A stretch of 64,000 nucleotides of DNA from Obrimoposthia wandeli (taxonomy: Eukaryota), in assembly GCA_977020255.1 (NCBI GenBank), contig CDROCS010000890.1:62001-126000 (forward strand). Direction: 5' to 3'. The notes beneath the pieces were generated by a model. That model was not told the DNA's origin, did not search any database, and saw nothing but the letters and a program-made list of their open reading frames with translations. Made by a program: the position numbers and the translations under genes. Positions 6,119 to 54,616 of this stretch are shown here, one piece after another (the first letter of the stretch is position 1; each line of letters opens with the position of its first letter).

Positions 6119-6570
6119 CAGCGGTTCCCAACCTTTCTGGTGCGGTGACCCCTTGATAACATTTGCCAAGTTGCGGTGACCCATTGATAACATTTGCCAA
6201 GTTGCGGTGACCCCTTGATAACATTTGCCAAGTTGCGGTGACCCCTTTATAACATTTGCCAAGTTGCGGTGACCCCTTGATAACATTTGCCAAGTTGCAG
6301 TGACCCCAAGGATAACATTTGCCAAGTTGTGGTGACCCCTTGATAGCATTTGCCAAGTTGCGGTGACCCCTTGATAACATTTGCCAAGTAGCGGTGACCC
6401 CAAGGATAAAATAATTTTATCAACACAACAATTTGTAATATTTTAACTACAAAAAATTTATTGGCACAACTTGAAACAATTGAATAAAAAAAATTTTTAA
6501 TAAGGCCTTGCTGCCTTAGGCGACTCCAGGCAAATTGTCAGGCGACCCCAGATGGGGTTGGGAACCGCTG
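6119..6570. mobile_element. hAT-family MITE (Charlie-like ends)
   Basis: Terminal inverted repeats (TIRs) CAGCGGTTCCCAACC / GGTTGGGAACCGCTG with a perfect 8-bp TSD CTCTAGGA (6111-6118, 6571-6578). Confidence 0.9.
6141..6408. repeat. 31-bp minisatellite (~8.5 copies) inside the MITE
   Basis: Unit TGCGGTGACCCCTTGATAACATTTGCCAAGT recurs at 6141, 6172, 6203 and onward. Confidence 0.92.
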
Positions 6571-18090: not shown

Positions 18091-19849
18091 TTCATTTAAA
18101 AAAAGTTATATTTGGTGATTGATTGAATTCATTTTACTTTGCAGTACTTTGAATTTTATTCCTTAAAATGTTGGTAAAATTTGACTAAATTTTTACTTTT
18201 AGCTTTGTTCTTTGTACAGCGATGACACCTGGTATTTAATCATTGTAATAATGGATTTTTTCATTTTGTTTGATTATACCTGAGGTTTACATTTTCATTA
18301 AAGTATAACTGGTGTCTTGTATAATTCTTTTTATCAAAAGATTTCGTATATCACTCCAGTAGGTAGAAGGATGGAGTATAGATCACTTGACCCCCCCCTA
18401 AAGGGTGTCACTCCATAAGGGTTTCACACCAATAAAGGTGTCTTGCCACACCATAAGGGTATATGTTGCCTCACCTCTGGTGAGGCAACATAGTTGCTCC
18501 CTGTATGGTGTGGCAAGATACCTTTGCTCATGGTGACACACTTATGGTGTGAGACACCTTTAGGGGGTCAAGTGGATCTAGACTCCATCCTTCTTTGATA
18601 TACCACTATGGTCATCCATAGTTTAAAGGGTCAAGTGGCTTAGCTTAGTCTCCACCCTTCTTTTTGAGATATACCACTATGAAAGGGTCAAGTGGCTTAG
18701 TCTCCACCCTTCTTTTTGAGATATACCACTATGAAAGGGTCAAGTGGCTTAGTCTCCACCCTTATTTTTGGTTAACCACTAATTCAAAGGATCAAGTGGC
18801 TTAGTCTCCACCCTTCTTTTTTGTGATCTAGTCCATAATGAAAATTTATGATAAAGTTCACACTTAACAATTAAGAATGTATGACGTAATCATACACACA
18901 CTATTTTATGTGAAAATTTAGGATAAAGTTCACACTTATCAATTAAGAAATGTGGTTTTTAACACACACATACACTATTTTATGTGAAATTTATGATAAA
19001 GTTCACTCTTATCAATTAAGAAATGCGGTTTTTTTAACACACACATACACTATTTTATGTGAAATTTAAACTAAAGTTCACTCTTATAAGTTAATGAATG
19101 TATTACGTAATCACACACATACTATTTTATGTGAAATTTAGATCAAAGTTTTTCCTAGGCTTTCACATTTATAGAATTATGATAAAATTTCTTTAAATAA
19201 CTTCAATTATATATTAAAATAAAAAAATAAAATAAGAAAGAAGTCAGAGAATAATACAAAATTAAACACATTTATTATGTAATTTCATAATATCATCTTC
19301 AAACTTAAGTGAATACTACATTTTAAAGTAAGAAAGTCCATTCTTTATACATTCTTTTCGTTTCAACGAATAAGTTACAACAATTAATAGAAAATTAGTA
19401 AAAATATTAATTTATTTGAATATTTGAATGAGAGTTTGAATAAAATGAGAGGAAGATAGATATGAATGTAAATGAATGTAATAAATGCAATGAATGTCAT
19501 TTTACAAGTAAGATCTTAGCAGTGAATGTACTTTTAAAAATAAGAGTGTCGATAGTTTGATTGGTTGCAATTATAATATAGACTATAAGTAAAATTAAAA
19601 AGAGTTTTTGTTGAATAAATTATAGTTAGATTGAATGCAAGTATGACGAGCAAGTGATTGATAGTATGAATTCAATACAAGTAAATTAGGCTTTAGCAAG
19701 TGAATGTAATTTTAAAAATAAGAGTGTCGATAGTTTGATTGAATGCAAGTGTAATTTAGACTATAAGTAAATTAAAATAGAGTTTTTGTTGAATAAATTA
19801 TAGTTAGATTGAATGCTATAGTTTACAATAAATTTATGCATATATTCAC

Positions 19850-20630
19850 TTTAATATGTTGTAAGTTATTACTTTATTATAATTTTCAACAACAACTTCA
19901 AGTTGTTTACTTATTAAACATAAGTTTAATGTTTTGTACAATAAATTGACTTGTAAACATAATTTATTTTGGTATATTTTCAATTTAATATGTTGTAAGT
20001 TATTACTTTAATATAATTTACAACAAAAACTTCAAGTAATTTACTTGTAAACTACAATATTTATTTGTTGTTGTATATATTCAGTTTAAAAATGTTGTAA
20101 GTTAATACTTTAATATAAATTACAATTCAAATCTTCAAGTAATTTACTTATTAATCATAATTTTAATGATTTGATCAATAAATTGACTTGTAAACATAAT
20201 ATAATTTGCATATTTTCAATTTAATATATTGTAAGTTATTACTTTATTATAATTTTCAACAAAAACTTCAAGTAGTTTACTTATTAATCATAAGTTTAAT
20301 GTTTTGTACAATAAATTGACTTGTAAACATAATTTATTTTGGTATATTTTCAATTTATTTGATGTAAATTATTACTTTTATATAATTTACAACCAAAACT
20401 TCAAGAAATTTACTTAATAATCATAATTTTAATGATTTGATCAATAAATTGACTTGTAAACATAATATAATTTGCATATTTTCAATTTAATATATTGTAA
20501 GTTAATACTGTAATATTTCATTACATAAAAAGTAATTCATAGTTTACTGTCGTTTACTATAAATTTACTTGTAAACATAATATATTTATGCATTTATTCA
20601 CTTTAATACGTTTTAAGTTATTAGAATTTG
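19850..20630. repeat. Central AT-rich tandem array of the foldback element
   Basis: Repeated TAATATGTTGTAAGTTATTACTTT...CAACTTCAAGT...GACTTGTAAACATAAT modules with a period of about 120 bp. Confidence 0.75.
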
Positions 20631-20679
20631 TGTTCTTGTATTCAATGATTAACTTTTATTAAACTATTATAACATTGAC

Positions 20680-21260
20680 CTCTTATTTTTTAAAATTACA
20701 TTCACTTACTAAACCCACTTACTTGTATTGAAATTCATACTATCAATCACTTGCTCGTCATACTTGCATTCAATCTAACTATAATTTATTCAACAAAAAC
20801 TCTATTTTAATTTACTTATAGTCTAAATTACACTTGCATTCAATCAAACTATCGACACTCTTATTTTTTTAAAATTATCTACCTGCTAAACCCACTTACC
20901 ACTTGTATTGAAAAATTCAAACTATCAATCACTTGCTCGTCATACTTGCATTCAATCTAACTATAATTTATTCAACAAAAACTCTATTTTAATTTACTTA
21001 TAGTCTAAATTACACTTGCATTCAATCAAACTATCGACACTCTTATTTTTTTTTTAAAATTACATTCACTTGCTAAACCCACTTACTTGTATTGAAATTC
21101 ATACTATCAATCACTTGCTCGTCATACTTGCATTCAATCTAACTATAATTTATTCAACAAAAACTCTATTTTAATTTACTATTTATAGTCTAAATTACAC
21201 TTGCATTCAATCAAACTATCGACACTCTTATTTTTTTCTAAAATTACATTCACTTGCTAA
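20680..21260. repeat. ~180-185-bp unit repeated about 3 times in the right arm (about 2 inverted copies at 19520-19830)
   Basis: The unit CACTTGCTCGTCATACTTGCATTCAATCTAACTATAATTTATTCAACAAAAACTC...CTATCGACACTCTT is seen three times. Confidence 0.85.
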
Positions 21261-24200
21261 GACTCTTACTTGTAAAATGACATTCATACTTGCATGCATA
21301 ATTTTATTCATTTACATTCATTCTACCTCTCTTCATTTATTCAAACTCTCATTCAAATATTCAAATAAATTAATATTTTACTAATTTTCTATTAATTCCG
21401 TTGTAACTTAGTCGTTGAAACGAAAGGAAAATGTATAAAAAATGGACTTTCTTACTTTGTAAATGTTATTCACTTAAGTTTGAAGATATTATGAAATTAC
21501 ATAATAAATGTGTTTAATTTTGTATTATTCTCTGACTTCTTCTTTCTTATTTTATTTTTTTTATTTTAATATATAATTGAAGTTATTTAAAGAAATTTTA
21601 TCATAATTCTATAAATGTGAAAGCCTAGGAGAAAAACTTGATCTAAATTTCACATAAAATAGTATGTGTGTGATTACGTAATACATTCATTAACTTATAA
21701 GAGTGAACTTTAGTTTAAATTTCACATAAAATAGTGTATGTGTGTTAAAAAAAACCGCATTTCTTAATTGATAAGAGTGAGAACTTATCATAAATTTCAC
21801 ATAAAATAATTAATGTGTAATGTTAAAAACCACATTTCTTAATTGATAAGTGTGAACTTTATCCTAAATTTTCGCATAAAATAGTGTGTATTGTATAGTT
21901 ACGTCATACATTCTTAATTGTTAAGTGAACTTTATCATAAATTTTCATTATGGACTAGATCACAAAAGAAGGGGTGGGAGACTAAGCCACTTGATCCTTT
22001 GAATTAGTGGTTAACCAAAATAAGGGTGGAGACTAGACCACAAAAGAAGGGTGGAGACTAGATCACTAAAAAGAGAGTGGAACTAGATCACTAAGAAGAA
22101 TTGGAGACTAGATCACTAAAAGAGGGTGGAACTAAGCCACTTGACCCTTTCATAGTAGTATATCTCAAGAAGAGGTGGAGACTAAGCCATGACCCTTTCA
22201 TGGTGATATATCTCTCAAAAGAAGGGTGGAGACTAAGCCACTTGACCCTTTCATAGTGGTATATCTCAAAAAGAAGGGTGGAGACTAAGCCTCTTGACCC
22301 TTTAAACTATGGATGACCATAGTGGTATATCAAAGAAGGATGGAGTCTAGATCACTTGACCCCCCCCCTAAAGGGTGTCACACCATAAGGGTGTCACACC
22401 ATAAAGGTGTCTTGCCACACCATAAGGGTATATGTTGCCTCACCAGAGGTGACGACTTAATTTATTATTTTTAAGTTTGGGTAGGAAATGGAACTAATTT
22501 GGAATTTTAATTATATTTTTCTGGGAAGTACTATTTAAATTAATTTTCTTTTACATCAAATTATAAAGCAAAGATTAAAACTACACCTGTTTCCTAATTT
22601 TTTTGTAAATAAAAGTAAAAGCGTATTTTTGTTGAGTAAACTCAAATTTGCAAATGCCAAGTAACCTATTTGCAAAGTCTTTTGACTTCTTTTTACTTCA
22701 ATCACAGAAGCAAATTTGAGACACGTTAAAAGGTTTTTCGAAAGATTAGACAAAAATGTAAATAAACAACTTTCGGAAATCTAGCAAACTGAAAATCTCT
22801 ATTTTATCAGTAGCATTTTCTGTTTTGGTAATATCTAACTGGTGTAAAATCGAGAAATCGTCTTTGTTTTGAAATCAAATTGCCGGCCAAATCGTGTCGT
22901 CTGCAAATTCAAATAAATAGAGAGTGATTTTATTGTCCAGACAGATAACCGTATTCAGATCAGGTTACAGTCGCGAATAAATTATCTGCAAGCGACCATA
23001 AATTGTCATCTGGTCCACACGCAAAACTATAATCCCTCCCCTGTTTCCATCAGATTTTCTTTGCTGCTGACAAAGACACTGACGGTGATCACTGACCACT
23101 GTGAAGCTACATTTGATTTGGGATTTTATAATTGCAGATCGTTTTTCTGAAGTTAATTTCTTAACATAAACCTGAAAAGGGACATCATATTTTCAGCTTA
23201 AACACAAAGCAGTTCATTTGTTGTTTAGCCACTTTCGTGTTAATTACTCATAAATTAGCTTCATATTTACCACTGAAATTGGGAAACATCCAGAGCAGTT
23301 ATTAATGGTCAGAGGCAAAAGTGTCCATTGAGGCGTAGATAGATGGGAATTTTATTGCCAGAGATCGTGAGAGAAACGTTGTGACCAACCATCATAGTTT
23401 CACTCCACAGTATTTGCCATCGATTCGGACTCATTTGCGGCACAATGTGAGCATGGGGAGTTGGGAGTCTAGGTTCATGGAAGACTGCGTGATATAATTT
23501 ATTGTGTGAAGCTGATGATATGTTCGTACAACTCAAAAATATTTCAATGGAGCCATACACTAGAGAACAAAATTTCAGACAAAAGTTTTAATTTGAAGAA
23601 TTAATAGCACTTACTCTATTCGGCAAACATCACTATCTAAATTTATGTGAACTCTTCAATTTTCCTTCAACATTTTAAAGTACATTTTCTTCTTCCGTAC
23701 CTAGATGACTGAGAAAAATGTGTACAATAACAAATATAAGGAAACTTTCAATACAAAACGTCCTTAGATTAAAGTATATATAAAAGACAAAGAAAACCAA
23801 ATATATATTTAAAACATTCAACATCATTTCAAATCAGTTTCGTTTATTTTCCGTGAGAAATTTCTCGATATTATTTTGTTTTCTTTCTTTGATTGAAATC
23901 TACGACTTTTTTCAGATAATTGGGAAGATAAATGTCCTTTCGTAAAAAATCTGAACTACAATGATCATGATCTTACGTTTGCTTCGTATGTTCGATGTGC
24001 TGTGAGAAGATAAATGTTGTCATGTAACAAATAAAGTTTTTAGTTTCCCCCTTTTTATTGATAATGTTTGAGTTCCAATTGGCACATTTTTAGTGGAAAG
24101 AGTCAGAGTGGAAAATCTTTGTTGAATTCTCATAATTGAATTATCACCTCAAATCAGATATGTAAACAACGTCTCATGGTCAATTAAAACGTTAGGTAAA

Positions 24201-25341: not shown

Positions 25342-27160
25342 TGTTGGGGTTTCTATACGAGACTTGTATAGATCCTCTTGTGTGCGGAGGGCCCCAACGT
25401 GAGTTCTAATAGAAGCAGGTCTTAAAGTTGGTCGTGGCCTACTTAATGTTATGGTTGCCTATCTCAATTGCTTATCTGAAGGTGTTTGTTTTGACGTCTC
25501 TTAATCTGAAGGGTTTAAAACAACGTTTTCTAATGTAGGAAATCGTTTATTGTTAACACACTAGGTTAAACACAACAATACGTTTACGTACGTATTTTCT
25601 AAAAAGTTTCAGTAAAAATTCCTAAGACTTCTAAAAGTCTCACACCAGTGGGGATGAACCACGTATCGATTTTAAGTTAGGGTTGGTTGATCGCTAGAGT
25701 CTTTACTCTAATTCGCGACTGGACTCAAGTTATAGATTTTATGGAGCTGGTTGCTCTAATTCAATGGTGAGATTTTAGACAAAACCAATGCAATTTATAA
25801 TTTGTCACTTCTTAGACAATAATATTTAAAATTGGGATATTTCCAAGCAAAATAATTCAATTATAATTTGTCTCTTCTTAGACAAATAATATTTAAAATT
25901 GGGATATTTCAAGCAGACAATAATAATATTTAAAATTGGGATATTTCCAAGCAAAATAATGCAATTTATAATTTGTCACTTCTTAGACAATAATATTTAA
26001 AATTGGGATATTTCCAAGCAAAATAATTCAATTATAATTTGTCTCTTCTTAGACAATAATATTTAAAATTGGGATATTTCCAAGCAAAATAATTCAATTA
26101 TAATTTGTCTCTTCTTAGACAATAATATTTAAAATTGGGATATTTCCAAGCAAAATAATTCAATTATAATTTGTCTCTTCTTAGACAATAATATTTAAAA
26201 TTGGGATATTTCCAAGCAAAATAATTCAATTATAATTTGTCTCTTCTTAGACAATAATATTTAAAATTGGGATATTTCCAAGCAAAATAATTCAATTATA
26301 ATTTGTCTCTTCTTAGACAATAATATTTAAAATTGGGATATTTCCAAGCAAAATAATTCAATTATAATTTGTCTCTTCTTAGACTCGTCTCACCTATTTG
26401 ATCCTAGTGCTAATCCAAGATGGGTCCTTGGCTGATGAAGTCCTGTGCTTAGATTTGCGAGATATCCGAGACAATGGGGTACTAGGCTTGATGAAGTCCT
26501 GTGCTTAGATTTGCGAGATATCCGATGTTGACTTCAATTTGTGAGTAGCTAGATTCACTTGCTTTTCGTGTCGCGGAAAGACAGGTGTTTAATATGTTGG
26601 CTGGTAATAATATGCTGGTTCACGGCTAACTGACAGGTTGGGAATAATATGCTGGTTCACAGCTAACTAAATAATCGATATAGGCAGCAACTAAAAAATA
26701 CTACTGACCTGACTTTCTTCGTGTTTTGGGTTAAATTGTTCCCTGTTGTGATTTCTCGATCTCTTTTTTCTGCGAGTTTTCCTGTCAATAATCAAATTGA
26801 AACTAGACTTATATAGTCTTACCTCTGCTGTCGATCACTTGACAATGGATCGATTGCAATAGGTTTCCTTTGGCAGCTGATTTAGTTTTCTGTCAATCTT
26901 CTTAATTTTTCCTTTTTTGTCGACGTGGCTCTTTTTTTCTTAGTTAATTAATTTTTTGCACTTTTGCTTAATTAACTTAACCTTATATATAACGCATTAT
27001 ACACGACCTTCGTGGTCCTCTTAATATTTATTCCTATTTTAGTTTTAATAATTTAACTTGTTTTTAAAATTTATTTAATTCTTAACCTTGCTTTCAAGGA
27101 TTTTAATTTTGCTATAAAACAATTATTTATTTTAATTCTACTCAAAACCTAATCCTAACA
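25342..27160 (+). mobile_element. Solo LTR (Ty3/gypsy-type, 1819 bp)
   Basis: TGTTGGGG...CCTAACA termini with the 4-bp TSD CATC at 25338-25341 and 27161-27164. The first ~430 bp are closely similar to the 13112 copy. Confidence 0.9.
25800..26385. repeat. 66-bp tandem array (~9 copies) inside the solo LTR
   Basis: Unit TCTTAGACAATAATATTTAAAATTGGGATATTTCCAAGCAAAATAATTCAATTATAATTTGTCTCT recurs at 25981, 26047 and onward, with no spacers. Confidence 0.92.
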
Positions 27161-40851: not shown

Positions 40852-41094
40852 TATCGGATTGTGGTGCCAAGCAGAAACGGTAAAGTCCATTTCGTAACAA
40901 AACTATTATAAAATAATTATATGTTTAAGGAGAAATTGTTGACCTTATGATGAATCAAATAAAAACTCAGGGTTTAATAACATATTTACAAAATTTGTTC
41001 GCCGTAGAAGTGTTACGGTAATTTTCATAACAAAATATCTAATTCATCAGGTGGACACATTCATCTAAAACATAGGACACGACATTTGCATGTA
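40852..41094 (+). pseudogene. Maverick/Polinton packaging ATPase relic
   Basis: YRIVVPSRNGKVHFVTKLL (decayed Walker A), VDLMM (cf. DDLM), IFTKFVRRRSVTVIFIT (cf. LFTKxSHHRNxSVIFITQN). Cut off by the LTR at 41095. Confidence 0.5.
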
Positions 41095-41859
41095 TGTTAT
41101 AAATGAATATTTTCCAATAATGTATTGAAGTTTGAATAGTTTCAAATAATATATATTCTTCTTTTAGAAATAATTTGTTCTTCTTTTAGAAATATATTCA
41201 TAAAATAATTTGTGTGATAATGAAAACTGAATGTTATATTTGAATAGTTTCAATAGTAATTGAAGTTTGAATAGTTTCAAATAATATATATTCTTCTTTT
41301 AGAAATAATTTGTTCTTCTTTTAGAAATATATTCATAAAATAATTTGTGTGATAATGAAAAAGATCATAAAATAATTTATTAGATCATAAAATAATTTGT
41401 TAGATAAGTCTAATAATTTTTGTGTCGATAAGTCTGATCGACGATTGCTATAAATAGCAATCGTCCAAATGTCAAATACGATGTCCATTGAGGGAGAGAA
41501 AGTTGATGAAGTATCAACACACAATCACATTCACATGTGTAAGGAAGAAGCTGCAACATTAATAATCCGTGATCTTTACACATAGCCTTCTCTTAACAGT
41601 CCACATATTACAATCCTCTACATCGCTGGTCATCTCAACACTGTCTTATTGCATGGTATGATGGACTATGTTGTGGAGAAAAGGGGGAAATGACAATACA
41701 GGAGAGATTTCAGTCAACACACATTCACACTGGATAATTTTGAGAGGGAAAAACAGTGATTGTACGAAAAAGAATATAGAGATTGTGAGAGAGGAGAGAG
41801 GATATACACACCACACACCGACACTAAAGACAGCACCAAAGTTTTTGTGTGTAGCTTCA
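41095..41859 (-). repeat. 3' LTR (765 bp)
   Basis: Minus strand TGAAGC...TAACA. Nearly identical to 53050-53814 (two substitutions seen by eye). Contains an internal ~135-bp duplication. Confidence 0.88.
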
Positions 41860-42991
41860 TGTTGTCCTCAGAATCAGAGGAGGTGAGGTCTATAACCTCG
41901 GTTAAGGCAGGAAAATTAGCGTTGGTTACGCGGGGAAAAGAGACGGTCAAACCACATTCTTTTAGCAGTTCTTGTTCTTTATGGAGGAAAATTTCTCGGG
42001 TCCATTGCGTGTCTATGAGGCTAGAGTGGGTATTCTTTTGTATTTCTTTATTGAAATACCACGAAACCATTCGAGCAAGTCCGGCTTGTTCTCTACGGTT
42101 CATTTCCATTTGAATAGTTTGTGTTGCCCCTAGATCAACCGTGTGCGAAAAATCGTTTTTTTGTAATCCTAAAACTTTGAGATCGTTGGATATTCCCGTC
42201 CCTACGAAAATATTGTCTCTTAGCAAGGATTGGACACGTTCTAACACTTCGACAGAATCAGGTTGGTTTCTTAACTTCCGTTCATTAAGGCCCGTTATTC
42301 TTGTCACATAATTCCTGATTCTGTCTCTGCTATTGCATTTCGTATCCAACACGATCTGTCCGCTTCTATTCATTATTGTAATGCTAGCTAGGGTGGGTTG
42401 TTTGTTCATTTTTACTACCATTTCACAATCGACAAAAAATATTTGAGGATTGTTGGGTATGATATTCAAATGGCAGACTTGAACGGGATTAGGTCGCACA
42501 TTTTGCTCCATGAAAAATATGTTATTTCCACCCGAAAAACGAATCATCAAATCGGGAGTTATTTGATGTCTCATTAATCTGTAAGAGTGGTTTTGCAGGA
42601 GAAGGATAGAAAAATGTTTGCTTTTCCTGTGTTTTAAAAATCCACGGCCTTTTGCTACGTGAATCTCAATGTCCGTGCATATTGGTAAGAAATTCATCAA
42701 CTCAAACAGTCTTTTTTCCGTTGGCTTTTTACTATTTATGTTGAGAATTATACTTTGTCTTGGGGTGTCTCTTAACTTAATGCTATTTGGAAGCTGGGTC
42801 TGATTGTCAAAAAGCTTTATTCCGTAATGGTTATGGAAATACCTTGTTCCAAACTGTCTTATTTTTCCATAAAGGAACTTAGCCATTTTCGCCATTTCTG
42901 GACGTTGTTCTGCTAACTGGACCGACTTCTCTCTCTTTCCCCGCGGCACCACCTGCCAGTTCAAATGAGGATTCGTGCTTGTGGGTTCCAT
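41714..42991 (-). CDS. DEDDh 3'-5' exonuclease (REX4/ISG20-like) with an unknown N-terminal domain; retroelement accessory gene
   Basis: ExoI FVDCEMV, IRNYVTRITGL, ExoII VGTGISNDLKVL, ExoIII THSSLIDT. Intact frame. Likely start MEPTS at 42991 directly after a CAG acceptor; the stop lies within the 3' LTR. Confidence 0.85.
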   Translation of the reverse strand: MEPTSTNPHLNWQVVPRGKREKSVQLAEQRPEMAKMAKFLYGKIRQFGTRYFHNHYGIKLFDNQTQLPNSIKLRDTPRQSIILNINSKKPTEKRLFELMNFLPICTDIEIHVAKGRGFLKHRKSKHFSILLLQNHSYRLMRHQITPDLMIRFSGGNNIFFMEQNVRPNPVQVCHLNIIPNNPQIFFVDCEMVVKMNKQPTLASITIMNRSGQIVLDTKCNSRDRIRNYVTRITGLNERKLRNQPDSVEVLERVQSLLRDNIFVGTGISNDLKVLGLQKNDFSHTVDLGATQTIQMEMNRREQAGLARMVSWYFNKEIQKNTHSSLIDTQWTREIFLHKEQELLKECGLTVSFPRVTNANFPALTEVIDLTSSDSEDNMKLHTKTLVLSLVSVCGVYILSPLSQSLYSFSYNHCFSLSKLSSVNVC

Positions 42992-43425
42992 CTGTAGGGT
43001 ATACAGATATAGTAAAAAAAATGTTGATCTTTTACATGCAAATATAAAAATTGTCAACTGTCTATCAAATGAAATGTTCCTGTTAGTTATTTTGTCTCTT
43101 TTTGTTAATCAAAAATCTGTAAATCGTTTTTGTCTTTATGTAACAAGTTTAAACAAACAAGGTATATAAATCAGATATGATTTTTTCATTTTTTAATATA
43201 TATTCTTATTACTGGTGTTATCAATATCAATATATACATATCTATACTGGTATATTCATTTTTTACCTATTCTTAATTTTATTATTACTACAGTATTTCA
43301 ACTAAAGTTAATGAATATTAATACCCATTCATAAACGCATTTCCTCTCCAAAAACATGCCAAAAGCCCAAACTCATTCTCAATTTTCTTTTATTTTATAT
43401 TTTATTTTACTCACTGGGGATTTTA

Positions 43426-43734
43426 CTAATTTTCACACCCGGAATCATCGCTTTCTCCCGGTTGAAATCCCATCAAACGATTAATTACTGATCTCAATGA
43501 TACGAGAGAGTTTAATGCTTCTCTGAGTCGTCGTACTAATAATTCCTGATTTGTTTGGCTATGTTCTAATCTTTCAATTGCAACGTCAAAAGCATTATTC
43601 ATTCGTTCACATTCCATTTCCTTGTCTTTTAAATGCGATCTCAGATTTATATTCTCTATTAACAATTTATTTTCCCATTTTTTCTATCTTTTATATCTTC
43701 TTCTATTATTTTGTACTAATTTTGAATTTCTCAT
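43426..43734 (-). pseudogene. Small basic/coiled-coil accessory ORF (~100 aa, one internal stop)
   Basis: MRNSKLVQNNRRRYKR*KKWENKLLIENINLRSHLKDKEMECERMNN...RRLREALNSL, with heptad character. Confidence 0.5.
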
Positions 43735-43835
43735 TTTCTAAAATGTTAAAAAGTTTTTAAGTCTTATTTTGAGAAAGAGAAAAAAAAATTAAATCTTTTG
43801 ATTTTTACAAATCAGTGTTGTTTTTCTCTTTGTGT

Positions 43836-45045
43836 TTATAGTTCTTGATTACCGTATCTATTGATGTATTGGATGAATTTGTACCACTTGGTATTAGGGA
43901 TGTTATGAGTGGACCTGGTGGTCCATACAGTTTGTTTAAGTGAAATGATTTTTAGTTTTTATTCTTTTAAAAGTTTTTATTTTTATTATTACTTTTATTA
44001 AGATGTTAAACATTTCAATTATTATTGCTATTATTATCTTAAATTCTGTATGATATATGTTTTGTGAATGATTTCGTTGACTAAAAAATATTATATGTTT
44101 TAAGTTCATCGATTTTGATGAATTTATTGTATTTTTTAAAAAGGTTGACTGGTTTTGTATGTTTTCTTTAGAAATGATTGATGATATTTTCTTAAATATT
44201 TTTGTTGTATATTGTGTTAAATATATTTTCATTACTTTTGTTGATTTTAATATAGGTTCTTTTATTTTTATTATTAGCCAACTCCCGCAAAAAAGAGTTG
44301 GTTGAAACATTTTTGATATCTTTTTTCCTATTGTTTCTAAAGTAGTTATGTTTTTGTAAGTATTCAAAATGTGTCCCCAACTTCTATACATCATTGGTTT
44401 ATTTGTGATTACACATTCTCTATATTGTATTATTATTCTCTCTGGATATCTTATATTTTTTATGGTTAAATTTGTTTTAGTTTGTGTTTTTTCTAATTGT
44501 TTTTCTGAGTTTTTCCAAAATTATCATTATGTCCTCTATATCTAATTCTAATGAGGGCTTTATCTAAGTCGTCTATTTTTAGTTGAAATTCCCATTTTAT
44601 CATTATTTTATGTTTTGATATATATTTCGCTGTTGTTTCTAATATTGATGCTAGGTATATGTGAGTTTCTATAGTTCTTTGATAAAGTGTAATGTTTTGT
44701 GTATTTGATTTTATTTTAATTTCATATTGTGTTTCATCTCTTAAGAATGGTATTGTATATTTTCGTGATTTTATTCCTATTATTGTTATGTTTTGTTTTC
44801 TGTCTTTTTGTGTAATTTGTATATTTCCAGTTTTGTTTATAAAGAGCGAGATTTTTAACTTTATAGATGTGATTTCTGGTATTATCGTAATTAAACCAAA
44901 TTTTTTTATAAGATGTGTTGTCGAGTCATGTTTATTTATAACATTTTTTATAGTTAGTTTTTTATCATTTAGTTTGTTAGCATTTGCTCCTTGTACGTTT
45001 TTACTTATGAAGAGATAAATTGCGAATATTATTAAAATTTTTGAA
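43836..45045 (-). pseudogene. Post-integrase predicted type I membrane protein with FN3-like ectodomain (frameshifted)
   Basis: In frame after IN: hydrophobic KILIIFAIYLFISKNVQG|AN (signal-like) and KYTIPFLRDETQYEIKIKS (FN3-like). Frameshift near 44515, hydrophobic KIIIAIIIEMFNILIKVII, short tail after another shift. Confidence 0.5.
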
Positions 45046-45199
45046 AATTCCTTTATTGATATAACTATTGCCTTATTCCATTTAGATTTTTTGTTTTTAA
45101 TATTTTTTCTCTGTATATCTTGTATTGGTAACATTTGTAAAACTGTGTTTTTTGTGTTTGATCTCAAATTATATTTGTGGCTTTTTACTGTTGTATTCT

Positions 45200-46270
45200 C
45201 TTCTGGTACTTGTCGACATCTATTTATGTGTGTTCTTATTTCTTTTGATTTTAGTTCATTGTCGAGTTTAGCTGTTATGTTAGTTCCATTGGTACTAATA
45301 ACTGTATATGGTCCTTTGTATGGTTTTGATAATTTGTGTGATAATCCTACATTGATTTGTGGATTGTGAATCATTATTTTACTTCCGATTTTTATATTTG
45401 ATGGTTTAGTTCTTCTATCATAATATTCTTTGTAATTTTCTTGTATGTTTTTTACAAATAATTTAGCCTTTTCAAATGCTAGTTTTATTCTTTCTCTAAT
45501 TTCTATTTTGTATTCAGGTATTTCTAGGTATTGTGTAGTAGGTTGTAGTAATGTTAGGTCAATAGGCATTTGCGGATCTCTGAGGAACATAAGGTAAAAA
45601 GGTGTTTCTCCTGTAGATGCATGTACTGATGTTCTATATGCAAAAAGGCATGGGGGTATGTGCAAATCCCAATCTGTTTGGTTGTTGTTTGTATATGATG
45701 CCATCATATCTTCGAGGGTTCTATTAAATCTTTCTACTAATCCGTCGGTTTGAGGGTGATATGGTGTTGTATTGATCTTTTTTATGTGAAAGATTTCAGC
45801 TATTGATGCTAATACATTATTTATAAATTCAGGACCTTTGTCGGTTAATAACTTTCGGGGTGCACCGAAAGTAAAAATAATTTTTTCGACTAAAACCTTC
45901 GCGATGGTTTCAGCCTTATGATCATGTGTTGGAAAAGCTTCTGGCCATCTTGTAAAATAATCTGAAAATACTATTATATATCGATTTCCTCGGGGTGTTT
46001 CAGGTAATGGCCCCATTACATCCATGGCAACAGTTTCCATGGGGGCCGATGGATACGGTATTGGTTTTAAAGGTATCTTTGTGGTACGTAAGGTGTTTTT
46101 TCTTTTAAGACATATTTCACAAGTATTACACCAATTTTTACATCTTCTTTCATATCAATCCAATAATATTTTAAATTTAATCTTGAATGTGTCTTTTTTG
46201 TTGACAGATGTCCTCCTAAAGCTCCGTTATGATATTGAAGGAGTAATTGGCATTGTATTTCTTTAGGTAT
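45200..46270 (-). pseudogene. Integrase (HHCC, DDE core, GPY/F)
   Basis: HNGALGGH...WCNTCEIC (restored across two frameshifts near 46140 and 46085), VAMDVMGPL, LLTDKGPEF, GLVERFN, KPYKGPYTV. Confidence 0.93.
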
Positions 46271-48600
46271 AACTAGTGAGTACAGATTTTTATCGTTTAA
46301 ATAATGTAAAATATTGTTACTGAATTTATAGCGAGATTCATGAGTTTTTAAATGTTTTCTTAATTTTTCATCTGTTGGAACTTGATTGATGGTGATATAC
46401 TTAATTATTTGTTGTAATTCCGTATCTTTGCTTTGAAGATCGGTGATTACTTTATCATCATATCGAGCCTTGATTATTGTAAAAATATTTAATTCGGTGT
46501 CATTGGAATTTATTACATTTACTTCTTCTCTTATTCTAGATAGGCAATCTGCATTGGCATTTGATTTACCTTTTCTATATTTAATTTCAATATCATATTT
46601 TTGGAGAATTAACGCCCATCTCATTAATCTAGATGTTGTATCTTTATGTAATGGTCTTTGATCAGTATAAACGTGAACTTTTCGACCTAATAAGTAATGT
46701 TTAAAATGTTCCATTGCGAAACAAATAGCGAGACATTCTCTTTCTATTGTTGAATAATTTATTTCGTGTTTTTTAAGACCTCTGCTTGCGTACGCTATCA
46801 CATGATCTTTTTCATTATTATCCTGTTGTCCTAGTACTGCTCCTAACGCGTATCCACTTGCGTCAGTCATTACTAGAAACGAGTTGTTGAAATTAGGATA
46901 TCTCAATATAGGTTTTTCTATCAATTTTTGTTTTAAGTACTCGTATGACTCTTGTTGTTCCGTTTCCCATTCAAATTTTTCATCCTTTTTAATAAGTTTG
47001 TTTAATGGTGTTGCTATTTGTGCAAAGTTTCTGATAAATCGACGATAATATCCTGCAAGTCCTAAAAATTCTTGTATATTTTTTACTGTTTTTGGAATTG
47101 GAAAATTCTTTATTTTTTCTATATTACTTTCATCTGGTTGAATTCCTTTTGCTGATACTGCGTGACCTAGATAATTCACTTTGTCTTTCATCCATTCACA
47201 CTTTTTTGGTTTTAATTTTAAACCTGCTATTTTTAATCTAAGAAATACATTTTCTAAATCTTTTAAATGTTCTTCAAAATTTTTTGAAAAAATTAGAATA
47301 TCGTCGATATAAACCATGACATGATCGGCGTCCATCAAAATGTGACTCATGCATCTCTGAAATGTTGCTGGAGCACCTGTTAATCCAAAAGGTAAAACGT
47401 TAAATTCGTATAATCCTTCTCCTGTTGAGAATGCTGTTTTTTCTTTATCTGATTCATCTATTTCTATCTGCCAATATCCACTTTGTAAATCTAAGATTGT
47501 AAATATTTTTGCATTTTTTAGTTTATCTAAGATTTCATCGATTCTTGGAAGCGGATATGTGTCTTTATGTGTGATCTCGTTTAATTTTCTGTAATCTACG
47601 CAAAATCTTAGTGAACCATCTTTCTTTTTTATCAAAACAACTGGAGATGTCCATGCTGAAAAACTTCTTCTTATGATTTTATTTTCTAACATTCCTTTTA
47701 CCTGTCTTTGAGCTTCTTCTCTGTAAGCGTATGGGATACGGTAAGGTCGTTGTTTGATTGCTGTATTAATAGTTAACGGGAGGTTATGTTTAATTAAATC
47801 TGTTCGTCCAAGGTCATATTCATTTTTTGCAAAAATTACGTCATATTTTTCCATCAATGATTTTAGTTTTGATTTCTCATAATCATTTAATCTAATATTT
47901 TCAAATTTAACAGTGGAATTGTCTTCTATTTTTTCATTATTAATTAATTCTATATTTTCTATAACACTTATTTTTCCAAGGCGTGTTCCTACTTTTAGAT
48001 GAATCTCGTTTATGTCTCCATTTAGTATTCTGATAGGTATTGTGTTATTTCTTATTTTACAGATTATATTTGGTAGAACGTAATTTAGTGTTTCTTGTTG
48101 ATATTTATAAGGTTCGAATAAGATGTCTTTTTCTGTAACTATGTTAGTTTCTAATTGTAATATTGTTTGTGTTCTAGGTTGAAGGATGATATCTCCTTTT
48201 ATTTCCAATTCGTATTCGCTTTTAGCGTTTGGTCTGTAAATGTCTTTAATTTGATTTTTCTCAAAGTCGAAGTGAAAATTGTTTCCTAATTTCCTCAATG
48301 TATCTATTCCTATTATCATCTGACATGGACAATTTTTCATTATTCTAGTAGGTATTTTTATAAATTTATCTCCTATTTTAAAAATACAATCTAATTTACC
48401 AATAATATTTACGGGTTGACCGTTTGGTGCTGTTATTTGACTGTTATCTGTGAGAAGTAGTAATATTTGGTGTGGTTTTAAGAAATATTCGTCCAAAACT
48501 GTTACGCTTGATCCTGTGTCAATTAAAGCTTTTAATTTATACTCATTAATTTCAACTTTTACATAAGGTCGTCTATCATTATCCATTTGATTTATAGTAT
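46271..48600 (-). CDS. Pol: aspartic protease, reverse transcriptase and RNase H, in frame with upstream env C-terminus
   Basis: RPYVKV...LIDTGSS; RQRPYRIP-like KQRPYRIP; LRFCVDYRKLN; LPFGL; YIDD at 47300-47311; MTDASGYALGAVL; ERECLAI. All within ORF 46067..49555. Confidence 0.95.
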
Positions 48601-48769
48601 ATATTGTTGGTGCAGTTGATTTTTGAACTTTTGTTTCTTCTTTATATTTTTCTAAATCGGGGTATTGTGTAGATTCTGTATTCTCTTTATTTTTATTGTC
48701 TACTATTTTTTGTAAATTTGTTTCTCGCATTTCGTTTGATAATGCGTTTACAGTATTTTGATGATGATT

Positions 48770-50620
48770 AAATATAAGAAATTTTGCCAAAAATGGAAAA
48801 CATCCTAATATTAGTTTCCATGTTAATCCTCCAACTTTATAAATATAGTATGTGGATAAAATTTGACTCAATAGTATTTTAAAGCATATTAGTAGTGCAT
48901 ATATTCCTACAAGTCCAGAAAATGCTTGTCCAAATATTAAAAATTTTCCCCATATTTTTGACATTGTATTTTTTGTAGCTTTTATGTAATGGTTTGGAGA
49001 AAGTAATAAATCATAATCAGGACGGCCAATTCCGTTTGGTACTGATCTTTCAATTATTTGTGTTAAAATTCGTGATCTAATTTGAGGAAATAAAATTTCT
49101 TTTCTTAATTTGTCTATGTCTTCTTGTATGTAAATACCTTTTGTATTGAGTTCATTGTCTGACTTTATTTCTATGTCGTTATTGAGGTCGGTTAATTGTA
49201 ATTTTAATGGTTGAGCGACTATGTCTCTTCTTGGGAGTGATATCCAAATATCCTTTGAGATTTGATAATGAGGTGCCATTATGTTTGAGCAATTCATTTC
49301 CTTTATACTGAATGTATTAAAAAGTATTATTCTGGTGATTGGTTCTACGAATAGTGAATGATTTTTATATGAAATTGGTAATTCTTTAGTGCATTTATTG
49401 TGATTTCTTATATTAACTATTACTTTTTGGCATTGATACGTATATAGTACCTCTCCCATTACTCTTCCGAAAGTACCATCTGGTAACGGTAATAATGGTG
49501 TTATTAATTCTGGATTTGTAGCAATAATTGCTAGTTTTGTTTTCAATACAGTCATTCATTATCGTTTCTTTATAAATTGCTTCTATTGTCATTAATCCTT
49601 TGTGATAAAAATAATCTAATTTATTATTGAAATAATCATAATTTTTTATATCAAATTTTGTTGGTGTAGTTTTTGCATTATAAATTTTTTCTTTACTTAC
49701 ATATATTCCTTTATAATTAGTTGTATAAATAGAGTGTCCACATCGGGATTCCTCTTTCTTTTTAATAAATCGCATACCTGAACCTTGTTCAGTTGACATT
49801 AAAATAGTTGGAGTTGATGTTTTTTGTATTTTTCTAGTTCTATATGTTTTAAGTATATTTTTTGGAATTCGTTGATCTAGCTCTGGATCATCTTTGAATC
49901 TTTGACCTTGAATTATTTGGAAATTTTCTGATTTTAGTAGTATTAATTTACATTGGTCTGTTTTTACCTTATAGTATAAAATTGAAGATCCTGTGTTACA
50001 ATATCCGATATTTGCTGCACAAAAAGGCATAGTCACCATGGTATTTGTAGATGGATCAAATGTTGCTTTAAATGTTCTTAGTTCTACCTCAAAGTTTTTT
50101 ATAACTACTAAACCATTTTGTTTAACTCCCATTACGACGTATGATCCTGTTGTGCATTCTCCGTCAGATTTGATAGTTCCTACCACTGTAATCATTTGTT
50201 GTATTATTTTGTTTTTTATTGCTTTTACTTTTATTTCTCTATCTATTCTCAGTTCGCCTGTTGCAAAAGCATCTTTACAATTTAACGCGTCAACAATTAT
50301 TGGTGTTTTTCCTAATGCTGGCTTAACAATTGAATTATGGCTGTGTTTGCCGCAATATGTTATGAATGTTTCCACATGTACTCTACATTCGAAAACTTCT
50401 GTATTTATGTAATCTGTTTCCTGGTATACATGAAATAACTTGGTGGTTTTAACTTTTACTTCATTTGGATCTGCGTCGGCGCATTGTTGTAAATCCATTA
50501 GTGAATATTTATTTTGTATACTATATTTTGAACAATCATATGCTTCAAGAGCATTTATAGGTTTTATAATATTTGTAATTATACATATCATAAATATTAT
50601 TTGAATTATTTTCCATAAAT
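48770..50620 (-). pseudogene. Envelope glycoprotein, class III fusogen-like (herpes gB/chuvirus G type); one frameshift near 49555
   Basis: Signal-like IIQIIFMICIITNIIKPINA|LEAYDC...YSLMDLQQC, C-rich ectodomain (ECRV...TYCG, GECTTG, FCAANIGYC), GEVLYTYQC...CTKELPI...FVEPITRI, and C-terminal TM FLIFGQAFSGLVGIYALLICFKILL. Confidence 0.75.
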
Positions 50621-50870
50621 TCTGGATGATTTTGTTAAAATTATATGTATTTTTAAGATTTGAATTTTTACTATTTTTTGGTGATTTTCGTTTATTTTTA
50701 TTTTTCGATTTTTTATTTTGTGTTTGAGTGGTTTGATTTATTTTTGTACTTATTTGTGTTCTTTTTTCTAATGTTAGACAACCGTTTCTAAATATTTCTC
50801 CGAATTCGGATTGAGAGTTAGTACTATTTGTGTTTTGCTCATTGTTTTGGTATTGCTGATGTGTTTCTTT

Positions 50871-51562
50871 TTAGCGATTATCTATTTCTTGTTGTCTTAA
50901 TCTCATCAATGCAACCTCCTCTGTTTCCTGATTTATATCAGTGTTTTCAATAGTATGTATTGGGTTTCTGTAAGCATATTGTTGATTTTGATTGTTAAAC
51001 TGTACTGTTTTTTGACTCTGTGGTTGTGGTAGTTGTTGTTTTATTGTTGTGTTACCAAATTGGTTCATCATTGTATTTAGTTTGCTACATTCATCAGTAT
51101 TGTGATTTTTCATATTACAAATTTTACAAAATTTTGTATTAGTATTAAAATATTTAGCTTGATTATTTTGATTATTGAAATTATTATATGGGCTTCTAAA
51201 ATTACTATTTGTTATTTGTCGATTATTTGTTCGTTGTTTATCTGTACAATAGGTGGTTCTGGGATGGCTACTGCTTCCGTTATTTCTGACGAACTATCCG
51301 AGTCAGATGTTTGTGGTGAAGGTAAACTCTCTGTATCTGAGGTTAAAGCTAGGTCCAGATGTTCTGAGAGTGGGGAAGTCTGTGTAAGTAAATCGTTATT
51401 TGTTGTAAAACTGATTTGTGATTTGGGTCTTTGAACTGTTTTTTCACTGGAGTCTGTTCTAACTAATCTTGTTTGAATTCTTCTCCAGTGAAGGCTAGCG
51501 CTACGTTTTTGTTTACTTATTTTGTGTGTCTGTTTTTGTGATAGATCTTTGGGTTTGTGTTA
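50871..51562 (-). pseudogene. Gag remnant with CCHC zinc knuckle; capsid domain apparently missing
   Basis: CKICNMKNHNTDEC (C-x2-C-x4-H-x4-C) at 51087-51128. An upstream Ser/Pro-rich frame joins via a frameshift near 51240. Confidence 0.7.
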
Positions 51563-53035
51563 TTAATAATTTATTTAAAGTTTCACAATCAAATATTGCA
51601 CAAATGAAAAATGCGTACTGCGTACTGAAACTAAAAATATTTCGGAGGAATTCGTAAAAGTTATTTAGTCAATCTCAAAATCAAACTCTCTTATCAATAT
51701 TAAAAACACGCTCTCTGAAAATCTCTGGAGAAAATTTATCTTTCCGAAGTTTTATTTTATTTTGTTTTTTAATTTTTTAGAACAATAACAAGACTCAAAA
51801 ATTTATCTCAACAATCTCTGTCCCTTATCACTTTGAGCACTACCACCGCCAACCAGTATATAGTCTTTATATGATAGCACTCGACGTAACTTGGGAAACA
51901 AGACAATTTGCGACAAAATTTTAAATTTTTTGATCAATTTTATTTTTATACAAAAATATATTTATATGATTATTTTAACTTTTATTATCTTTTTAGTTAT
52001 TTATTTTACTTTTACGCCTCTAATAGATAAATCTACTCCAATTTATAGTTCTCAAAAAATGAATTTCCTACTGGTAAACCGGTTCAAAGGAAAATGTTAA
52101 AATTTTTTCAAAATTTTCTATAACTCTTATGATTAAAATAATCAACACGACTCAAATTATAAAAGAAAATTAGATAACAGGACCCGACTATGTTTCCGGA
52201 AACAAAATTATGTTTTCTCTTACGAGGCTTGTGCGCAAAGCTGCGAATACCTCACTATATTTATTTTATATTATACTTATAATATTAACCAAGGTAATAT
52301 GATATAAAAGTTCTTAAAATTTTACACTAATCGCAAATTTTTCACAAAAAAAAAATTGAATGTTGTTAGCCCTGAAACTGCAAATATCGAAGGCCACAAA
52401 ACCAAAACAATATACCAAAATGGGTAAATGTAATTAACGCAAGGTTAATGGGCAAAGTTGAATGGAAACTTCAATCACTTTTAGTTATTCATATTAAAAA
52501 CATATACTACAAACAGAATATTAAAATGAAATATTTTAGATGTTATTATAATTTAATAATTATTCTGTGTGGAGCTCTATCTTCAACACCAAATTTTAAA
52601 AAGTCAAAGAATTTTAATTAAATGAATATTTGGAAATTTGATAAATTCCCTTTTCAATTTTTTTGTAGATTTTGAAAATTATAATATTAAACGTGATAGT
52701 GATGGAGAAAATTTATTTTAACCAAAGCTTATGTGTTATGAATAATACAGTAAATCAAATTATCTGGAATTAATAGTATCCAAAAGTTAATAGTATAATA
52801 GTATAATTAATATTATAATAGATAATACAGTAAATCAAATTATCTGGAATTAATAGTATCTAGAAGTTAATAGTATAATAGTATAATTAATAGTATAATA
52901 GTAGAAGATTTTAATAATATTTCACAAATAAATATAGAAATAAAGACTAATGTCTTAAAATGATCTTACAATTATCAAAAAATTAAAAATAAAAATAACA
53001 ACTCTTGCCTTTTTTTAAAAGATTCCGTGCTCTTT

Positions 53036-53048
53036 GTCGAGCTCACCA
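53036..53048 (-). promoter_or_regulatory. Primer-binding site
   Basis: TGGTGAGCTCGAC begins 1 nt after the 5' LTR end (TAACA) and is complementary to a tRNA 3' end ...GUCGAGCUCACCA. Confidence 0.75.
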
Positions 53049-53049
53049 A

Positions 53050-53814
53050 TGTTATAAATGAATATTTTCCAATAATGTATTGAAGTTTGAATAGTTTCAA
53101 ATAATATATATTCTTCTTTTAGAAATAATTTGTTCTTCTTTTAGAAATATATTCATAAAATAATTTGTGTGATAATGAAAACTGAATGTTATATTTGAAT
53201 AGTTTCAATAGTAATTGAAGTTAGAATAGTTTCAAATAATATATATTCTTCTTTTAGAAATAATTTGTTCTTCTTTTAGAAATATATTCATAAAATAATT
53301 TGTGTGATAATGAAAAAGATCATAAAATAATTTATTAGATCATAAAATAATTTGTTAGATAAGTCTAATAATTTTTGTGTCGATAAGTCTAATCGACGAT
53401 TGCTATAAATAGCAATCGTCCAAATGTCAAATACGATGTCCATTGAGGGAGAGAAAGTTGATGAAGTATCAACACACAATCACATTCACATGTGTAAGGA
53501 AGAAGCTGCAACATTAATAATCCGTGATCTTTACACATAGCCTTCTCTTAACAGTCCACATATTACAATCCTCTACATCGCTGGTCATCTCAACACTGTC
53601 TTATTGCATGGTATGATGGACTATGTTGTGGAGAAAAGGGGGAAATGACAATACAGGAGAGATTTCAGTCAACACACATTCACACTGGATAATTTTGAGA
53701 GGGAAAAACAGTGATTGTACGAAAAAGAATATAGAGATTGTGAGAGAGGAGAGAGGATATACACACCACACACCGACACTAAAGACAGCACCAAAGTTTT
53801 TGTGTGTAGCTTCA
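53050..53814 (-). repeat. 5' LTR (765 bp)
   Basis: Direct repeat of 41095-41859, followed on the minus strand by the PBS. Confidence 0.88.
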
Positions 53815-54616
53815 TGGCCGGATTGTACAGTTGGTCAATGCAGTCACCGCTGGACCAATCAGACACACAGGTCTGGCAAATCGACGATTACTAAAAATAG
53901 CAATCGCCCAAAATTCCATCTTCACTGAATCTCTTGCAGCCAGCAATACTCAGATACGGTGCACCATCGCAGACGTTGTCGGTTATTGCTGGACACACAT
54001 CATTGTCAAAGTTAGGCATGCTGTCGGGGTCTCGCCTGCCATCTCCAAGAGTTGTGCGGGAAGAGGAGGAAAAGAGAGATGACGATGCCCAGGTTGATGG
54101 TGAACATGTAAAGGCAACTGAATAAGCTAAGCTCCAAGACCGCCATGCAGATAGGGTAGACCATGAGGTAGCTGTTGAACAGTGAGATGCCGGACATATC
54201 CGCCACGTAGTAGAAATAGGGTAGTGAAGGATACACAGGGGCGGTTGGGCAGGTGGGAAATTTGTTGTCAGGGAGGCAACTGCTTCCGAGATGGGATGAT
54301 TGAAGGTTGTTGCCTCTCCGGATGATGATGAAGGGAATAGGTCGCTGCTACTGGGCGGTAATATTTTTATGATAAGAATCCCTTTTATCAACCGCTTTTT
54401 TCGCCGCCTTCCTGATGAGCCCGGCAGGGCGAAACGGGCTAACAACCCGTCGGAGGCTGAGATTTGATAAACCTCCCTAATTGTGGGCACTTTAGATAAT
54501 TTTAAAAAATGTCAATTTAAATTGACTGTAATTTAATTAATTAATTTTAATTAAAGACCCAACATGTACATTAAAATCTTTAAAATTAAACTTTTTTAAA
54601 AAATTAATCTTTTAAA

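Follow-up and report, generated by a model that had tools for sequence, protein, structure and literature searches.

A predicted DEDDh exonuclease with a β-helix domain as an accessory gene of an envelope-bearing gypsy-type retroelement in Obrimoposthia wandeli

Does an exonuclease gene found at the end of an LTR retrotransposon belong to the element, and if so, what would it do there? The question is raised by a stretch of 64,000 nucleotides from the Obrimoposthia wandeli assembly, in the following termed the window, in which the original prediction described an intact 425-codon frame for a REX4/ISG20-like DEDDh exonuclease overlapping the 3' LTR of an otherwise broken retroelement. The open frame at 41714-42991 is real and lies on the minus strand, the plus strand being full of stops. 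It is part of the following element.

41095..54564, 13,470 bp, minus strand: LTR retrotransposon copy, defective, with TG...CA ends (pol domains by Pfam)
53050..54564, minus strand: 5' LTR, 1,515 bp (the 3' LTRs of other copies begin matching at 54564)
41095..41861, minus strand: 3' LTR remnant, last 767 bp only (2 differences from the 5' LTR)
41091..41094, no strand: left target-site duplication TGTA (sequence)
54565..54568, no strand: right target-site duplication TGTA (sequence)
53031..53048, minus strand: primer-binding-site-like TGG tract, 1 nt past the 5' LTR (sequence)
50874..51559, minus strand: gag remnant in two frames, with a CX2CX4HX4C knuckle (open frames)
48656..50870, minus strand: envelope, Monjiviricetes (chuvirus-type) fusion glycoprotein PF24664, upstream of the protease (Pfam, E 2.8e-30 and 1.6e-51)
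45253..48565, minus strand: protease (PR, DTGS), reverse transcriptase (RT, YIDD), RNase H (RH) and integrase (IN) with GPY (Pfam and motifs)
43936..45250, minus strand: post-integrase polyprotein tail with hydrophobic segments (open frames; similar tails in the metagenome loci L031 and L034)
43426..43683, minus strand: small coiled-coil-like ORF between polyprotein and nuclease (103-147 codons in other copies)

The genes are arranged in the order gag, env, PR, RT, RNase H, IN, hydrophobic tail, small coiled-coil-like ORF and nuclease, and in other copies gag through env to RT/pol forms a single frame. The PR-RT-RH-IN order, the GPY/F integrase, the CCHC knuckle, the TG...CA LTRs, a target duplication within 4-6 bp and the primer-binding-site-like tract are those of Metaviridae (gypsy), and the element represents an envelope-bearing lineage of this family with the nuclease as a fixed accessory gene. 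A tRNA search of the 64-kb window found none. A polypurine tract before the 3' LTR is absent in the seven copies with a located LTR start, the corresponding region being deleted in the window copy; in its place a C-rich conserved stretch ending in AGGAT adjoins the 3' LTR (L005, L015, L025, L037, L049, L114, L118). The post-integrase tail has no Pfam match; it resembles a second membrane protein (also in L031, L034 and L035) and occurs in the genome as at least two alleles with 75-79% nucleotide identity. The small coiled-coil-like ORF matches Pfam Nsp1_C weakly (E 0.015). Among the LTRs of the family (window 53050-54564 compared with L002-L030) the first 100-570 bp are common and the interior is widely divergent; a 206-codon frame inside the LTR (53891-54511) has no Pfam match. 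Elsewhere the window harbors a foldback-like structure of about 4 kb (18365-22374) with many inverted arm pairs made of internal tandem repeats, as well as tandem arrays at 25729-26427 (66-bp period) and 6118-6432 (31-bp period).

The window copy is damaged by an in-frame stop at 50871-50873 and by frame changes near 49.5 (env), 46.1 and 44.5 kb, some of which four may be assembly errors, and compared with other copies about 0.92 kb of gag is absent at 51216/51217. The family itself is young and large, as 127 RT matches were scored at 98-100% identity, the nuclease gave 99 scored matches among 5,870 candidates, and the two LTRs of the window copy differ at two positions. The nuclease gene and its borders comprise the following parts.

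42992..43030, minus strand: predicted 3' splice acceptor, pyrimidine tract and CAG directly before the ATG (sequence)
41859..42991, minus strand: native part of the nuclease gene, codons 1-378 (similarity to other copies stops at 41859)
42458..42904, minus strand: double-stranded β-helix (cupin/AlkB-like) domain, aa 30-178 (model; domain shared by distant relatives)
41957..42445, minus strand: DEDDh exonuclease domain, aa 183-345 (Pfam, alignment, fold)
41864..41896, minus strand: putative SUMO-interaction-like motif VIDLTSSDSED at the natural C-terminus (sequence)
41714..41857, minus strand: 47 codons of LTR read-through outside the family protein (product of the deletion in the window copy)

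The frame does end inside the 3' LTR in this copy, but as biology the overlap dissolves into deletion damage. From the window copy about 1.03 kb is missing, namely the 3' untranslated stretch together with the stop codon before it and the initial 748 bp of the LTR behind it, and the deletion ends are joined at a 3-nt microhomology, by which codon 378 is fused to the middle of the 3' LTR. A genome-wide count gives a single occurrence of this fused junction and 282 exact occurrences of the normal one across the stop. Of 29 other copies, 24 encode a protein of 375-378 aa ending in DSEDNI, with the stop 207-279 nt upstream of the LTR start, and the remaining five carry earlier stops. An LTR overlap as a feature of the element is therefore ruled out. 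The true family protein has 374-389 aa and consists of the β-helix domain and the DEDDh nuclease.

The intactness of the frame next to broken gag, env and IN genes had been taken as meaningful. The breaks are there; the meaning is not, since about four point breaks scattered over 7.3 kb would spare a 1.1 kb frame by chance with p = 0.54, and this frame has moreover lost its stop codon. Intactness of the window copy is thus ruled out as a sign of selection. Across the genome, the 67 loci of the selection set yielded 49 copies with frames of at least 370 aa, one repeat-expanded locus being set aside. The complete catalytic set of five residues is kept in 49/49 full-length copies, a count biased by the picking of copies for similarity and an open frame. 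Over aa 30-345, subfamilies A, B and C compared with one another give pairwise NG86 dN/dS values of 0.07-0.11 (approximate, as dS is 1.0-3.0 and near saturation), and copies within subfamily A give 0.09-0.17; inside the groups pN/pS is 0.20-0.23 for four of them and 0.66 for another. Neither confinement to a single copy nor neutral evolution describes these data, with 282 exact normal gene ends, hundreds of copies and dN/dS of about 0.1: the nuclease gene is under purifying selection and fixed in the family.

Linkage of the gene to the element was counted in 17 copies chosen regardless of RT, within the stretch examined around each. RT lay nearby in 11/17 and integrase in 2/17, but neither in 4/17; these last comprise two elements with internal deletions, a tandem nuclease-LTR array and a copy with only a downstream LTR start. 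A further 20 copies were chosen for a nearby RT match and have no bearing on linkage. At one locus (L129, G000:C703) nuclease gene and LTR start form a head-to-tail array with a period of about 3 kb and no pol in the stretch examined.

The nuclease domain itself is well defined. Pfam RNase_T matches aa 186-335 (E 6.9e-10), among solved structures the closest by sequence are ISG20, ISG20L2, SDN1 and PAN2, and the predicted residues D188, E190, D270, H322 and D327 are present and aligned with those of ISG20 and ISG20L2, so that the ExoI DxE, the ExoII D and the ExoIII HxxxxD of the DEDDh group are all found. A full model built on a 21-sequence alignment (mean pLDDT 82.6) depicts a DnaQ-like fold, and superimposition of the modelled nuclease domain on ISG20 (1wlj) gives Z 21.6 with rmsd 2.0 for 161 aligned positions, compared to Z 15.4 for SDN1, 10.8 for RNase D and 10.2 for LCMV NP. 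ISG20 and ISG20L2 are the top matches in both sequence and structure, and the protein-atlas clusters are REX4-like and AEN. The original prediction of an element-encoded accessory gene of REX4/ISG20-like DEDDh type is thus supported by sequence, fold and hundreds of copies, and the protein is very probably an active 3'-5' exonuclease.

The N-terminal part, announced as some 200 unknown residues, is present with about 180 aa and is not unknown: in the model it is a double-stranded β-helix. Modelled alone (pLDDT 89.4) it shows a helix followed by this fold, for which the structural matches are level, small cupins reaching Z 9.7 (95-98 aligned), Ofd2 Z 9.6 (126) and ALKBH6 Z 9.5 (134). Against a viral structure library the top TM-scores of 0.62-0.64 belong to large polyproteins, one of them from a plant closterovirus-type virus, which we take to carry AlkB domains. 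Sequence searches with the N-domain gave no match in Pfam or PDB and no usable match in the protein atlas. In the alignments, read without superposition, a conserved HxD...H iron triad and a 2OG-binding arginine are absent and the sole conserved histidine is H111; from this single histidine and the lack of HxD we infer that the domain may serve as a non-catalytic binding module. Its conservation is roughly on a par with that of the nuclease, with dN/dS of 0.06-0.10 where dS is finite.

The motif VIDLTSSDSED is present as predicted, at aa 366-376. Taking VxDLT followed by acidic residues as the strict form of a SUMO-interaction motif, five of the seven alleles carry it, C-terminally in A, B, C and G and N-terminally in F, with a shuffle rate below 1% for each motif-bearing allele. 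Allele H has the motif core with too few acidic residues and allele D has no motif. The four C-terminal occurrences are not independent, A, B, C and G having a common tail. The strict motif is found in 0/22 distant relatives and 1/126 cellular proteins, and a looser pattern in 10 tails where 6.3 are expected, so the motif is plausibly a local feature and not a hallmark of the family.

Upstream of the start codon a CAG lies 0-1 nt before the ATG in 7/7 alleles, directly in A, B, C, G, F and H and one base off in D, and a YAG at most 2 nt before the ATG in 3/5 metagenome loci (L031, L034, L035); such an acceptor is absent before the ATG in L032, L033 and the Maverick copy described below. Its position directly at the ATG across alleles and metagenome loci points to a nuclease that would be made from a spliced sub-genomic RNA. 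Contigs of four runs from a single sample, which extend over the flank too, contained no leader-to-acceptor joint among the matches listed, a result with no bearing on expression.

The seven alleles (A, B, C, G, D, F, H) are only 35-82% identical in protein and differ at 41-78% of fourfold sites, while copies with A, B, C, D or H have an RT that matches the window RT at 98-99% identity, with 0-3% of fourfold sites differing. Allele G goes with an RT of 96-97% identity, and F and most D copies with one of 85-87%. Such different alleles on a near-identical RT indicate that recombination exchanges the nuclease cassette. Variation also affects the post-integrase tail and the LTR interior, so that the pattern is not specific to the nuclease, and it is explained equally if a single RT-IN backbone has spread by recombination into older lineages resident in the same genome.

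Relatives outside this genome are distant. A collection of 1.84 billion representatives yielded 1,250 matches, and among the best 150, which were examined, 20 proteins also match the N-terminal profile, two of them only in the linker. These 20, from Logan, ENA and JGI, often lie on 12-17 kb contigs. Of five metagenome loci, L031 and L034 display the full env-PR-RT-RH-IN-tail-nuclease layout with the nuclease at the same place and an RT 71% identical to that of the window element, L035 has the tail upstream, and two are too short. Two aspartyl-protease-like matches are seen in L031 (2-9040) and two to three in L034 (1-9624), where an extra membrane-like segment lies between them. Other searches added little: 20 pattern matches on viral contigs contained no relatives, a protein-atlas search with P0051 gave only RNase_T clusters, and word-based protein searches, a method nearly blind here, returned none (P0002), one (the alignment) and two envelope relatives. 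The DxE motif is kept in 29/31 family rows tested; one distant member with the N-domain, P0049, has lost it.

A quick tree built from 159 nuclease domains, without labelled outgroups and with a long-branch warning from the program, places 35 rows in a single clade (SH-aLRT 100, stem 1.61) among REX4-like cellular proteins, apart from two cestode proteins; identity to the relatives within the clade is 19-29%. The captured host nuclease of the original prediction survives only as an ancient capture, the element nucleases forming one long-stemmed clade with no clear sister. Given this clade and the same place of the gene in distant metagenome elements, the capture from a cell appears to be old. 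Two queries of the genome did not recover a host REX4; the search was swamped by element copies and does not indicate absence.

A second genomic setting bears on function. At three loci (L089 1377-2876, L090 280-3204, L091 6822-8389) a 34% identical two-domain form with intact catalytic motifs adjoins Maverick/Polinton genes or their shared flanks in 3/3 cases (neighbours L095-L097 and L099), namely protein-primed polymerase (pPolB), rve integrase, A32-like ATPase, jelly-roll capsid, kinase and DSPc. These copies are near-identical and rearranged, and two of the three end in a 34-aa tandem repeat. On contig G000:C422 the form sits outside the 3' LTR of a giant Burro-like element (L089 5814-10000, L093, L094), which encodes gag, a Monjiviricetes env, BIR, RING, PR, RT, RH and IN, followed by a long tail with dual-specificity phosphatase domains and then three short RING ORFs. 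This BIR-bearing giant shares 37-43% identity in env and 58-67% in RT with the window element, and the stretches of it examined contain no match to the nuclease gene. Together with the Burro-like layout and a GC content of 30%, this kinship suggests that the host may be a planarian.

What, then, would the element gain from the gene? The reading we favour, tentatively and at slightly less than even confidence, is an accessory nuclease acting against host defence. The protein would be expressed from a spliced sub-genomic RNA in the manner of a retroviral accessory gene, the β-helix domain, its dioxygenase chemistry lost, would pick the substrate, and the SUMO-interaction-like motif might place the protein at SUMO-rich silencing sites. 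There the nuclease could trim or destroy defence nucleic acids, be it small RNAs, their precursors or sensed by-products, and their loss would help the element to escape silencing. This reading is favoured by a gene separate from Pol, by swapped alleles on one RT, by the presence of a relative in a non-RT element and by the SUMO-type motif. Since Mavericks do not reverse-transcribe, the relative found there speaks against a task tied to RT. The close folds include SDN1 (Z 15.4), which degrades small RNAs. This was counted in favour, as were the low dN/dS values with the retained catalytic residues; that the selection they show is purifying and not positive was counted against. Many exonucleases are hindered by 3' methylation. 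Planarian piRNAs are 3'-methylated (PMC8532177), which likewise counts against counter-defence; the same source names LTR elements and Polintons as the classes most clearly piRNA-repressed in planarians, which counts in favour.

A bolder form of the counter-defence reading, unlikely as a whole, would make the two-domain nucleases suppressors of piRNA silencing, held as swappable ancient alleles by retrovirus-like elements and Mavericks alike, SUMO-targeted and equipped with a modification-reading β-helix. If true, it would provide a transposon-encoded enzyme directly attacking animal small-RNA defence. To our knowledge, whether animal transposons encode enzymes against piRNA silencing is an open question, and our literature search found no such anti-piRNA nuclease encoded by a transposon. 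The gene offers a concrete, small, single-protein candidate from a recently and massively expanded family.

Doubtful, but the most serious of the alternatives, is a helper of replication inside the particle, which would trim the ends of the element's own RNA or cDNA, remove mispaired 3' bases or shape the plus-strand primer. Strong purifying selection, lineage-wide retention and the lack of a polypurine tract in the seven copies would fit, as would the large size of the elements (13-17 kb), since nidoviral ExoN has been tied to genome growth (10.1101/2021.02.01.429129); 3'-end processing was also what Rodriguez et al. proposed for the DEDDy ORF3 of rotifers (PMC5408684). A partner tightly coupled to RT would resist exchange, however, and alleles only 36-43% identical are found on the same RT; the nuclease is a separate gene outside Pol, it has a relative among Maverick genes, and the Burro-like element on C422, with related env and RT, shows no match to it in the stretches examined. 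Were the gene nonetheless an aid to replication or proofreading, it would bear on the upkeep of retroelement genomes of 14-30 kb.

Rather improbable is a weapon against competitors, degrading the RNA of incoming viruses or other mobile elements and thereby excluding superinfection or protecting the host cell. Its closest fold, ISG20, is a broad antiviral nuclease that restricts HIV-1, and such an enzyme could equally act against viruses (PMC7756014). The allelic diversity would suit many targets, and the gene is present in two unrelated element classes. A trait of benefit to the host and spread over thousands of candidate copies should be open to cheating, yet the catalytic residues are kept. 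That conservation also makes it quite unlikely that the protein is an adaptor in host shutoff or at chromatin, mainly binding RNA or SUMOylated partners or degrading bulk host mRNA with the nuclease site secondary: the five residues are invariant in the copies of this genome, and DxE persists in all but two of the 31 family rows. Two domains with an interaction motif would agree with an adaptor, one distant relative (P0049) has lost DxE, and the piRNA pathway includes inactive derivatives of DEDD enzymes, Maelstrom and EXD1 (PMC5408684). A passenger, either a one-off transduced host gene or neutral cargo, is hardly credible: the damaged 3' end of the window copy and one copy (L118) without upstream element sequence in the stretch examined might suggest it, but it is refuted by the 282 normal gene ends, by dN/dS of about 0.1, by the single clade at 19-29% identity and by the same place of the gene in L031 and L034.

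Among known systems, ORF3 of the rotifer elements Juno and Vesta comes closest, being a DEDD 3'-5' exonuclease in a separate gene downstream of pol, typically spliced, and shared between unrelated element classes, there with Terminons (PMC5408684). ORF3 is an RNase D-like DEDDy enzyme (DEED) in low-copy elements with no viral env and with no departure from neutrality reported for the sequenced ORF3s (PMC5408684), whereas the window element carries a DEDDh nuclease of REX4/ISG20 type fused to a β-helix domain, a chuvirus-type env, high copy number, dN/dS of about 0.1 and multiple alleles. Identity with the bdelloid DEDDy ORF3 was ruled out, as ExoIII carries His and RNase D reaches only Z 10.8. 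Troyka was also rejected, its description giving CG...CG ends, a 3 bp duplication and no env (PMC12440569).

The planarian giants Burro/GYPSM1 share with the window element a mononegavirus-fusion-related env in frame between gag and protease, an arrangement first noted for Burro, as well as many accessory functions and very high copy number (PMC6431247). Burro elements exceed 25-30 kb and carry BIR, BCL2, MATH and ankyrin cargo, while the window copy, at 13.5 kb with about 2 kb missing, is about half that size and without such Pfam matches. The section consulted on Burro mentions neither a nuclease gene nor the phosphatases seen on C422 (PMC6431247). With cellular ISG20, ISG20L2, REXO4, SDN1 and PAN2 the element nuclease shares the fold and the five catalytic residues; it differs in its 20-27% identity, its separate long-stemmed clade and its N-terminal β-helix, which is lacking in the cellular rows compared. 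Arenavirus NP and nidovirus ExoN are likewise virus-borne DEDDh enzymes with roles in immune suppression or proofreading (10.1101/2021.02.01.429129), though by analogy only: LCMV NP reaches Z 10.2 versus 21.6 for ISG20, and no zinc-finger motif is evident in the element alignment.

The AlkB-like m6A demethylase ORF of orchid gypsy elements is again an accessory ORF of a gypsy element with a 2OG-oxygenase-type β-helix fold, but a recent capture with shown demethylase activity (PMC9289625), whereas the protein described here shows a fold match tied between cupins and AlkB proteins and no conserved HxD...H triad. A DnaQ-like domain has been called a well-known accessory (PMC6338049). Our literature search, Repbase, subscription papers and supplements lying outside its scope, encountered neither a DEDDh nor a cupin-DEDDh gene described from an LTR element or a Maverick. 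The locus adds a case of one gene common to an LTR element and a Maverick, with a β-helix and DEDDh pairing undescribed in these sources. DEDD exonuclease ORFs in rotifer LTR elements and AlkB cargo in orchid gypsy elements are known already (PMC5408684, PMC9289625); the element-borne DEDDh nuclease of REX4/ISG20 type fused to a β-helix domain is, as far as our search reached, new.
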